Of a stretch of 64,000 nucleotides of DNA, positions 44,691 through 45,837 are shown one piece after another. Position 1 is the stretch's first letter, and the number at the start of each line of letters is the position of its first letter. The notes beneath the pieces were generated by a model that saw only the letters and a list, made by a program, of their open reading frames with translations, was not told the origin of the DNA and made no database searches. This DNA comes from a virus (taxonomy: Duplodnaviria > Heunggongvirae > Uroviricota > Caudoviricetes): IMG/VR virus record IMGVR_UViG_3300026382_000007. The stretch is one strand, 5' to 3'. The position numbers and the translations under genes were made by a program.

Positions 44691-45059
44691 ATGAATGCGC
44701 AAGAGTTCCTTCGTACTATTTATGTGTTGATGATACGAAATATCAATAAGATAAAAAACATTGAAGAACACCGAAAAAGAGGGAAACTTCCGCTTCCAAT
44801 GTTGAAGGAACAAGCTGAAATAGCATCTAAGCTACTTGAAGCAATAAGACAAGTGATTGGTGTGATTGATTTTGAAAAGGGTGGGGCTGAGGAATTGGCT
44901 TTGACTATGAATGAAATTGGTACTCTAGTGAGTCAAGCAATGGTGTTAAGTAGACCAGAAGCACTTGATAGTGCCCTGAGAATACTTCGCCGTGAAGTGG
45001 GTGCTCCTAAATCTATCGCAATAGATTTAAAATCAGAGACTGAGACTCAAACGACTTAG
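44691..45059 (+). CDS. hypothetical protein (start uncertain: TTG 44664 or ATG 44691)
   Basis: track ORF 44577 overlaps deaminase; 3' end overlaps flagellin gene 3' end. Confidence 0.3.
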   Translation: MNAQEFLRTIYVLMIRNINKIKNIEEHRKRGKLPLPMLKEQAEIASKLLEAIRQVIGVIDFEKGGAEELALTMNEIGTLVSQAMVLSRPEALDSALRILRREVGAPKSIAIDLKSETETQTT

Positions 45060-45837
45060 AAAGTGCAAAGGCATTTGCCTGTGCTTTCAGTGTATTCTTT
45101 TGTAGTCTCTCAGTTTCTGCCGCATAATCAACATCACGAATTTGTGACTCTGCTGCTTGCACATTTACTGCCGTTGCATCATTTACTCTAACTCTTGACT
45201 CCAATGCTGATTGCTTTGAACCTATTCCAGAACGGATTGTGTCTATTGCTTTAATTGCTGTATCGATATCAGCCAAAGCATCTGCTGCTCCGGAACCAGT
45301 TGTTAAATCTATAGATGCATCATCTAATCCCTGAGAAGCGATATCAGTATTTGCGATTGACATAGACATAGTTTGACCTGAATACGCACCAACTTGGAAA
45401 CTCTTATCTGTAAAAGTCCCGTCCAAAAGGCTTATGCCATTAAATGAAGTCGTTTTCGCAATTTGATCTGCTTGTTCCATAAGAGCCTTAACATCTGCCT
45501 CAAGTGCAGCACGAGCCTCTGGTGAATTCGTATCTGAAATTGCTTGTGATGCTTTATCTCTCGCAGTTACTAAAATCTTTTGATATTCATCCATGGCACC
45601 ATCGGCTATTTTAACAAGTGAAATTGCATCTGCTGCATTTTTATTGGCTTGTGTCAATCCTTGGTGTTGTGATCTTAATTGGTTAGCAATTGCTAATCCT
45701 GCTGAATCATCTGCCGCACGATTAATGCGAAGTCCAGTTGATAATTTTTCTAAAGACAAGTTCGCCTCGTGTTGAATTTGTTTCCCGTACATATTTGAAA
45801 ATAGTGCGGATACATTTGTATTAATTCTGAATGACAT
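45013..45837 (-). CDS. short flagellin-like protein (D0/D1 domains only, 274 aa)
   Basis: N-term MSFRINTNVSAL..LEKLSTGLRINRAADDSAGLAIANQLRSQ and C-term IRDVDYAAE..QSLILNLLR match conserved flagellin termini; RBS aaggagactattATG. Confidence 0.75.
   Translation of the reverse strand: MSFRINTNVSALFSNMYGKQIQHEANLSLEKLSTGLRINRAADDSAGLAIANQLRSQHQGLTQANKNAADAISLVKIADGAMDEYQKILVTARDKASQAISDTNSPEARAALEADVKALMEQADQIAKTTSFNGISLLDGTFTDKSFQVGAYSGQTMSMSIANTDIASQGLDDASIDLTTGSGAADALADIDTAIKAIDTIRSGIGSKQSALESRVRVNDATAVNVQAAESQIRDVDYAAETERLQKNTLKAQANAFALSKSFESQSLILNLLR

Follow-up and report, generated by a model that had tools for sequence, protein, structure and literature searches.

A short flagellin in a T4-like phage points to a phage-resident lineage with sigma28-type promoters

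The DNA analysed here (the window) is a stretch of 64,000 nucleotides (nt) from IMG/VR virus record IMGVR_UViG_3300026382_000007, and the gene under study encodes a flagellin of 274 amino acids (aa) on its minus strand (Table 1). The position, strand, length and terminal sequences given in an initial annotation of this DNA agreed with the list of open reading frames (ORFs) and with the sequence. Pfam profile Flagellin_N (PF00669) matched residues 5-143 over the whole profile (4.9e-40; 137.2 bits against a cutoff of 26.6), and Flagellin_C (PF00700) matched residues 189-273 over profile positions 2-86 of 86 (7e-15; 55.6 bits against a cutoff of 23). On these profile matches the protein is assigned to the bacterial flagellin superfamily, so that the original identification as a phage-encoded flagellin holds. 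The gene runs antisense to all phage genes in a region of nucleotide metabolism. No other minus-strand ORF in the 64 kilobases (kb) is a credible gene, as those of at least 100 aa overlap plus-strand genes or a tRNA; the opposite orientation to its neighbours had been recognized correctly.

An AlphaFold2 (AF2) model of the protein, with a mean predicted local distance difference test score of 86.2, placed helices at residues 9-34, 41-101, 106-129, 181-234 and 238-273 and a short beta-hairpin region between the third and the fourth of these. The layout is D0-D1-D1-D0: the outer domain is absent and a beta-hairpin/loop of ~50 residues lies between the D1 helices, in agreement with the little central domain described initially. 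The model superposed on the Kurthia filament subunit 6T17 with template modelling (TM) scores of 0.93/0.92 and a root-mean-square deviation (rmsd) of 2.1 A over 276 columns, and on Roseburia hominis 9HPZ with TM scores of 0.92/0.93; full-length superposition was also obtained on 9LAH and 9OXK (Shewanella FlaA/FlaB) and on Caulobacter FljK. Over the solved minimal filaments (6T17, 9HPZ, 9OXJ/9OXK/9LAH, FljK 6XL0 and B. subtilis Hag 5WJT) TM scores were 0.87-0.93 and rmsd values 1.8-2.9 A, although these flagellins are products of chromosomal genes of unrelated bacteria with 26-38% identity to the window protein. The Protein Data Bank (PDB) contains many solved wild-type filaments made of 270-286-aa flagellins, which shows that D0/D1-only subunits build working filaments. 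The initial annotation had described the protein as retaining only the termini, which implies a phage-specific truncation. This view was not sustained, because the Sulfurimonas relatives of the protein are 268-279 aa long with the same architecture and because filaments of minimal flagellins have been solved; the short length is thus native to this branch. The model indicates a complete, filament-competent minimal flagellin.

The best NCBIfam model was FlaB NF010115 (245.6 against a cutoff of 503); the full-length models scored were PRK12802 (171.5 against 332), LafA (144.6 against 365) and Hag (143.3 against 352). Because all scores were below cutoff, the sequence is placed outside every curated NCBIfam subfamily (FlaA, FlaB, Hag, LafA, PRK12802). 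The best PDB sequence matches were H. pylori FlaB/FlaA and C. jejuni FlaA, and the start of the H. baculiformis flagellin, MSFRINTNVSAL, is identical to that of the window flagellin over the first 12 residues. Together with the FlaB/FlaA matches in NCBIfam, these findings bear out the likeness to Campylobacterota flagellins noted initially. The protein retains the canonical GLRINRAADD...ANQLRSQ motif and an intact N-terminal export region. Conservation between phage and Sulfurimonas flagellins is lowest in the central segment exposed at the surface (residues 144-188), with 29-31% identity compared with 52-53% in D1.

Downstream of the gene, the weak candidate terminator at 44797-44782 is the sole minus-strand terminator-like site in 44500-46200, a count not above shuffle expectation. 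The convergent 86-aa phage ORF overlaps the flagellin gene by 47 nt at the 3' ends (45013-45059). It had no Pfam match, and the overlapping 160-aa ORF at 44577-45059 had no PHROG match; the homologous position is also occupied in the related loci L003/L004 and L107 (L numbers denote the loci compared). Flagellin transcripts would run antisense into the 86-aa ORF, and perhaps on into the dCMP deaminase gene, before reaching the terminator-like site.

In the 83-nt intergenic region upstream of the gene, the flagellin strand reads TTAAGTTA-N11-GTCGATCT, then ATATAGTATA, then acaacAAGGAGactattATG. The first two elements resemble a sigma28-type promoter, contradicting the initial statement that the promoter was not of this type. 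The 27-nt offset to the ATG recurs in L004 (TAAACTTT-11-GTCGATAT) and L107 (TAAACATA-11-GTCGATAT). A pattern derived from the window sequence and those of two relatives occurred once in 64 kb, with 0.06 occurrences expected in this post hoc test. The loci L007, L008, L009, L014/L015 and L108 carry TAAAGTTA/TAAAGTTT/TTAAGTTT-N11-12-[AGT][CT][CA]GAT[AT][TA] 63-101 nt upstream of the flagellin. Sulfurimonas, Sulfurospirillum and other Campylobacterales have TAAAGTTA-N11-ACCGATAT 50-82 nt upstream of their chromosomal flagellin genes, a promoter of the same sigma28 type as in the phages, which calibrates the motif for the likely host group. By an ad hoc weighted score, sites of at least 19.5 were present at seven of the ten other distinct loci; L004, L007, L008, L009, L014/15, L107, L108 and the Sulfurimonas genes had clear sites. 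Sites scoring at least 20 were not enriched overall (16 in 381 kb compared with 12.6 in shuffled sequence, about 3e-5 per nt by chance), and six of these 16 fell within 140 nt upstream of a flagellin ATG.

The initial annotation had related the flagellin promoter to a phage cassette, a highly conserved, promoter-like unit of ~45 nt (TTAAGCnAGCTnTAAGCTnnnTTTAGGTATAATATAGTATA) that lies upstream of at least eight plus-strand genes. Its 3' core, ATATAGTATA, has ten exact copies in the window and 36 copies with one mismatch, compared with 6.8 expected. The flagellin upstream region shares only the last 10 nt of the cassette and a similar leader, the upstream two-thirds being replaced by the sigma28-like element; the earlier claim was therefore correct for the core at 45864-45855 but not for the rest of the cassette. 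From its position, the core probably spans the transcription start, which would fall there with either promoter type. L004 and L107 have related cores on their main coding strand, but none upstream of their flagellins; the conserved signal is therefore the sigma28-type promoter, and the core is an addition of the window lineage. In vivo the gene may depend on sigma28. A T4 MotA-box or late-type promoter was considered for the cassette and dropped because of poor fit.

Leaders of Campylobacterales flagellin genes, read upstream of position 5001 (3441 in L103), have in common a GGC-AAGGA-W-GCC hairpin and a AAAAGGATTTATTATG ribosome-binding region, and the hairpins fold better than shuffled sequence (z about -2.4 to -2.8). 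In Campylobacter flaA regulation, CsrA binds hairpins of the kind with GGA in the loop, and by analogy the flagellin leaders may be linked to CsrA. Among the phages of subclade B (see below), the leaders of L007, L108 and L014 keep the host-type GGA-loop hairpin, and L108 also keeps the host-like ribosome-binding region. The Sulfurimonas leader contains a GGCAAGGAWGCC hairpin, whereas the 5' untranslated region (UTR) of the window flagellin is short and has no such hairpin. The conserved Campylobacterales leader (sigma28 promoter, hairpin and AAAAGGATTTATTATG) was seen at the chromosomal flagellin genes of L029-L031, L040, L045, L048, L051, L074 and L103.

Table 1. Features of the flagellin locus, of the remaining window and of related loci (window positions unless a locus is named)
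Feature	Position	Strand	Remarks
Flagellin coding sequence	45013..45837	minus	from ORF list; 274 aa, ATG start, D0-D1-(beta-hairpin)-D1-D0 architecture
Shine-Dalgarno AAGGAG	45844..45849	minus	about 6-7 nt 5' of flagellin ATG; read from sequence
Phage cassette 3' core ATATAGTATA	45855..45864	minus	directly after sigma28-like -10
Sigma28-type -10-like GTCGATCT	45865..45872	minus	consensus GCCGATAA; 27 nt from ATG
Sigma28-type -35-like TTAAGTTA	45884..45891	minus	consensus TAAAGTTT; 11-nt spacer to -10
Candidate intrinsic terminator (weak)	44782..44797	minus	216 nt beyond flagellin stop codon
Convergent 86-aa phage ORF	44799..45059	plus	gene call in L011; context, outside flagellin unit
Cassette TTAAGCnAGCTnTAAGCTnnnTTTAGGTATAATATAGTATA copies	30796, 36691, 38660, 43037, 48610, 53499 (variant), 59123, 61745	plus	
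Complete reverse cassette copy	25184	minus	flanked by genes 24807-25169 and 25217-25582; no evident minus-strand target gene
Flagellin-downstream FlaG / ORF regions	L001 8859-9200; L007 8893-9538; L009 8847-9489; L108 8881-9515		
527-aa protein	33619-35202	plus	cytidylyltransferase/NMNAT-like C-terminal part
SPFH/Band-7 protein	39218-40090	plus	
tRNA bank, 26 genes in four clusters	49943-58533	plus	most amino acids; duplicate Glu, Met, Lys, Thr, Leu, Arg
GGDEF-domain protein, 175 aa	58568-59095	plus	Pfam 61.6 bits; N-terminal helical stretch
GroEL-type chaperonin	60137-61717	plus	231 bits

A large protein database held about 100 clusters (clustered at 90% identity) with 50-77% identity to the window flagellin, most of them 267-274 aa long and the remainder mainly fragments. 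Genomic contexts, inspected for 12 distinct clusters, were phage-like in every case; three of the contigs are IMG/VR uncultivated virus genomes of 146-290 kb, and the largest contig in the set has 496 kb. The identical flagellin is present on six assembled contigs, four of 50-200 kb, the longest of 155 kb. The arrangement PAAR ... flagellin (antisense) ... small ORF, dCMP deaminase and ribonucleotide reductase (RNR) is kept in L003/L004 (72% flagellin identity) and L107 (57%). Elsewhere in T4-like genomes, the flagellin adjoins NAMPT, SIR2 and a Gp23 fragment (L001) or NAD kinase and T4_Y07B (L005). In all sampled T4-like genomes (the window, L001, L003/L004, L005 and L107) it is oriented against the strand of all its neighbours, while its neighbours in jumbo-phage loci are found on both strands.

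Using the flagellin alignment as query against 185,579 species-representative bacterial and archaeal genomes (a single-protein query found nothing), we obtained a best full-length bacterial match of 46% identity, in Sulfurimonas. The short chromosomal flagellins of this genus (S. crateris P0119, 272 aa; L029-L031, L040, L103; 43-46% identity) resemble the window protein in length and in their D0/D1-only architecture. They differ in that the phage proteins form a separate clade and the window gene lies antisense in a T4-like genome. A metagenome scan yielded few further clade members among the matches listed. In distance-based (neighbour-joining) trees, the phage flagellins formed one clade with 98% bootstrap support; support was 100% for subclade B within it and 93% for the short flagellins of Sulfurimonas. 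The trees did not recover the Sulfurimonas group, or any other, as sister to the phage clade.

Members of subclade A, which includes the window flagellin, start with MxFRINTN and have 274 residues, whereas those of subclade B have 267-269 residues, start with MFNVSQAN and reside on much larger contigs of up to 496 kb. The latter contigs encode an intein-containing phage-type DNA polymerase, DnaJ, a CCA-adding enzyme, FtsH and Pol III alpha, and one neighbouring gene product is weakly similar to virion proteins of PA5oct-type jumbo phages; from this gene content we consider them, with moderate confidence, to be jumbo phages. Within subclades, the ratio of nonsynonymous to synonymous substitution rates (dN/dS) was 0.05-0.3, and the least saturated pair, L014-L015, had a dS of 0.85, a dN of 0.053 and an omega of 0.06. 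Purifying selection covers the whole polymerisation core, including both D0 helices. These comparisons indicate a flagellin lineage long resident in large phages, namely T4-like myoviruses and jumbo phages, and so far found only there. IMG/VR contigs L016-L025 (14-329 kb) carry unrelated flagellins that start with an NHN motif and have 35-46% identity, so flagellins on putative large phages may not be confined to the window clade; the phage nature of these contigs is putative and contamination is possible.

The carrier itself is a large T4-like myovirus. A T4 gp5-like baseplate hub at 1854-2660 matched Gp5_trimer_C, Phage_base_V and Gp5_C, a gp53-like wedge protein at 158-706 gave a weak Phage_gp53 match, and the window also encodes a phrog_219 baseplate wedge, both RNR subunits (large and small), dCMP deaminase, DNA ligase and an amidase. 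A tail-associated protein of 1152 aa is common to >1,500 phage records at <30% identity. The structural module of the window spans 158-22587; major capsid protein and terminase were not seen within the 64 kb. No integrase was found among the ORFs scanned (64 kb of about 155 kb), and the phage is probably virulent. Among the 50,697 deposited phage genomes of INPHARED, megablast with positions 43000-48000 gave no match and tblastn with the flagellin gave ten weak records only, with no cultured relative there: 'Bacillus phage EZ-2018a' at 34% identity and short unannotated fragments at 27-46%.

In several relatives the flagellin is accompanied by further flagellar genes. FlaG lies on the same strand directly after the flagellin in L001/L002 (58.7 bits; other FlaG scores were 45.7 and 31.5 bits). 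In subclade B (L007, L008, L009/L010, L108) the flagellin is followed by a conserved ORF of 95-97 aa and then, except in L008, by FlaG. The 95-97-aa ORF had no Pfam match above threshold (one at 0.0038 was under cutoff) and none in NCBIfam or among PDB sequences; a FliS-like role was considered and found no support. L007 (11706-12071) and L009 (11516-11905) each encode a single-domain response regulator that matched the CheY model best (101 and 134 bits, under the equivalog cutoff of 189 bits). A 70-aa protein of L108 (2323-2535) is FlgM-like (35 bits; cutoff 40.75) and also has a precomputed Pfam FlgM match. In the window, the GGDEF-domain protein aligns its SGDEF motif with GGEEF of WspR and is possibly a minimal phage diguanylate cyclase; cyclic di-GMP governs motility.

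Further genes with a possible bearing on flagella were seen in some of these loci. L009 also encodes a PAS-HisKA-HATPase-REC hybrid kinase. About 4 kb from the flagellin-FlaG pair of L001 (12795-13754) lies the gene of a 319-aa Epimerase/Polysacc_synt_2 protein resembling the PseB type, near SIR2, a B12/radical-SAM protein and NAMPT; PseB-type sugar dehydratases serve flagellin glycosylation in Campylobacterota. On L111, a 45-kb metagenome contig, positions 6001-10056 encode a flagellin of 49% identity, FliD, a 262-aa ORF without assigned family and a FlgK-like protein. This module resembles a complete distal-filament set and is flanked by orphan ORFs, among them one for a 1513-aa protein; L111 may be either phage or bacterial.

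The host is presumably a Sulfurimonas-like member of the Campylobacterota, which we infer from the nearest bacterial flagellins, the promoter and leader features, the GC content (37% in the phage, 34-38% in Sulfurimonas) and contigs from the same sample series as the phage relatives, which show 72-77% nucleotide identity to Sulfurimonas genomes in alignments of 4-6 kb.

We hypothesize that the host flagellar regulon drives expression of the phage subunit, which is then exported and becomes part of the host filament. We hold this reading tentatively, at slightly less than an even chance, and infer export, incorporation and a benefit to the phage. Early in infection, host RNA polymerase with sigma28 (FliA) would transcribe the phage flagellin gene, limiting its expression to cells with finished hook-basal bodies in the manner of a class III flagellar gene, and the fragment of the phage cassette may add phage-controlled expression in the window phage. 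The flagellar type III apparatus of the host would export the flagellin, which would polymerise at the tip of the host filament and supplement or replace host flagellin. The infected cell would thereby keep or retune its motility during the takeover of host gene expression, and kept motility would plausibly hold it where sulfide and oxygen meet, an interface that powers the production of phage. We favour this reading because the polymerisation core is under selection, the promoter is of host type and FlaG, CheY and FlgM are linked to the flagellin in relatives. Co-assembly with or capping of host flagella had been among the roles proposed initially; the regulatory wiring and the accessory genes of relatives favour the former, and capping is unlikely since the protein resembles a filament subunit in type and does not resemble FliD. 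The two remaining roles named there, masking against flagellotropic phages and FlaC-like secretion, gained neither support nor contradiction.

Several observations weigh against incorporation into the host filament. The sigma28 site of the window is moderate (score 18.5, with ~0.04 expected per 140-nt window) and the weakest of the conserved set, and L001 and L005 have no convincing site. Moreover, the window site directly abuts the phage-cassette core, and a phage-type promoter could be the true driver of the gene. Folding of the short 5' UTR against shuffled sequences revealed no CsrA-type GGA hairpin (z = -0.31), and homologues of FlaG, the 95-aa ORF and CheY were sought in the window and none was found there. 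The phage contexts cover 12 of about 100 clusters, and the host is identified indirectly. Finally, filaments may grow little within the short time of a lytic infection.

A precedent exists in the temperate Enterobacter phage FR-phi, whose flagellin FliC-P was shown by experiment to be assembled into the filament, where it replaces host flagellin and raises motility (PMC13418256; bioRxiv 10.1101/2023.11.30.569447). The former report terms this the first known prophage-encoded flagellin, and phage-encoded flagellin has previously been documented only for this temperate Enterobacter prophage. By analogy, replacement of host flagellin by FliC-P lends precedent to the filament reading. The two systems share a flagellin encoded by a phage. 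In contrast to the minimal flagellin of the T4-like, probably virulent myovirus, however, FliC-P belongs to a lambda-like prophage, has enlarged D2-D4 outer domains and is coupled to the RNA-guided repressor TldR, which with its guide RNA silences host fliC, whereas the window flagellin has host-type sigma28 wiring. The ORFs at 44799-45059, 45921-46679, 46679-47071 and 47127-47714 had no Pfam match to the TnpB/OrfB family, and the PHROG search of 44577-45059 and the latter three ORFs gave no TnpB/TldR-like match; a guide RNA was not searched for. With no TnpB-like neighbour, outer domains or lambda-like prophage, the window flagellin stands outside the TldR/FliC-P system.

Nitrosospira phage roc1 is annotated with FlaA (two copies), FlaG, FliI, FliJ and CheY (bioRxiv 10.64898/2026.05.02.722434), a similar motility toolkit by annotation only; its host belongs to a different phylum, and the annotation is incidental, with lineage, regulation and function left unanalysed. 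Flagella do not come up in papers on Sulfurimonas phages or on vent viromes, and our literature searches found no description of this phage flagellin lineage.

Export and incorporation could also serve a different end, namely masking of a receptor from flagellotropic phages, possibly siblings, and thus superinfection exclusion. We regard this as unlikely. The low conservation of the surface-exposed segment between phage and Sulfurimonas flagellins would suit a disguise, but the FlaG, CheY and FlgM of relatives suggest that filament length and motor behaviour are being controlled, not the surface disguised, and no flagellotropic trait is known for the window phage or its competitors. Masking was raised for FliC-P as well, although it was unsupported there: a screen of >1,100 phages found no flagellotropic phage (PMC13418256). 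To a regulatory decoy we give an equally small chance. In such a case the phage flagellin would stay in the cytoplasm and titrate FliW and/or FliS, freeing CsrA and shifting both the post-transcriptional programme of the host and its flagellar regulon in favour of the phage. The flagellin-FliW-CsrA partner switch is established in Campylobacter and Bacillus, CsrA-type GGA hairpins are kept in the flagellin UTRs of subclade-B phages and one relative encodes the anti-sigma28 factor FlgM, all of which would fit. However, the window UTR has no hairpin, selection on the entire polymerisation core with both D0 helices exceeds what a decoy needs, and a co-transcribed filament-length factor, FlaG, suits assembly better.

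Secretion through the flagellar export apparatus without incorporation, followed by extracellular action, is less probable still. Campylobacter jejuni FlaC is a secreted non-filament flagellin homologue, short and without outer domains, and the window protein resembles it by description in these traits and in its Campylobacterota context; its export region is intact. Yet the window protein groups with filament-type flagellins, keeps their canonical motif and can be superposed on filament subunits over its full length; among bacteria it is closest to sigma28-driven Sulfurimonas flagellins of ~270 aa, and a free-living vent or sulfidic setting offers no plausible extracellular target. A flagellin-like coiled-coil fibre on capsid or tail seems very improbable to us: helical-bundle proteins are common in phage fibres, and nothing more specific speaks for it. 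The gene lies outside the structural module, antisense and behind a host-type sigma28 promoter; to our knowledge, flagellin polymerises solely at the tip of the flagellar export channel, as is well established, and the BFVD viral protein structure library contains no flagellin fold. A functionless passenger recently captured from the host is effectively refuted. Its composition and codon usage would allow such an origin, but as a test of recent transfer they tell nothing, the GC content of phage and Sulfurimonas being the same. The initial annotation had named a recent host-derived fragment without synteny as what would speak against its proposal; instead we found syntenic orthologues at 57-72% identity, a 98% bootstrap phage clade of about 100 clusters, a constant length of 274 aa, dN/dS values of 0.05-0.3 and no more than 46% identity in bacterial genomes.

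Beyond incorporation into the host filament, we consider a broader proposal, which is possible but more doubtful. Large lytic phages of sulfur-oxidising Campylobacterota may carry a toolkit for motility takeover, built on an ancient phage-only flagellin, by which the virus would rebuild and steer the flagellum of its dying host. The toolkit would comprise the flagellin with or without FlaG, CheY and FlgM, possibly also FliD/FlgK; it would be plugged into the sigma28/CsrA circuit, and the GGDEF cyclase of the window may belong to it. What would be new is a widespread and selectively maintained flagellin lineage in T4-like and jumbo phages that apparently uses the host flagellar sigma factor. 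If the proposal is correct, 'auxiliary' viral functions reach beyond metabolism to how infected cells move and behave, with a bearing on sulfur and carbon cycling at vents and oxyclines, and these proteins are natural minimal flagellins that may co-polymerise with host subunits. One small gene with a short promoter would make a testable system for asking whether lytic viruses steer infected chemolithotrophs in redox gradients.

Outside the flagellin locus, three adjacent plus-strand paralogues at 11972-16498 (558, 523 and 421 aa) all matched phrog_25468 and contain internal repeats. They probably serve as fibre or receptor-binding proteins, and a local rise in GC content (to 44.5% at 14001-16000) coincides with them.

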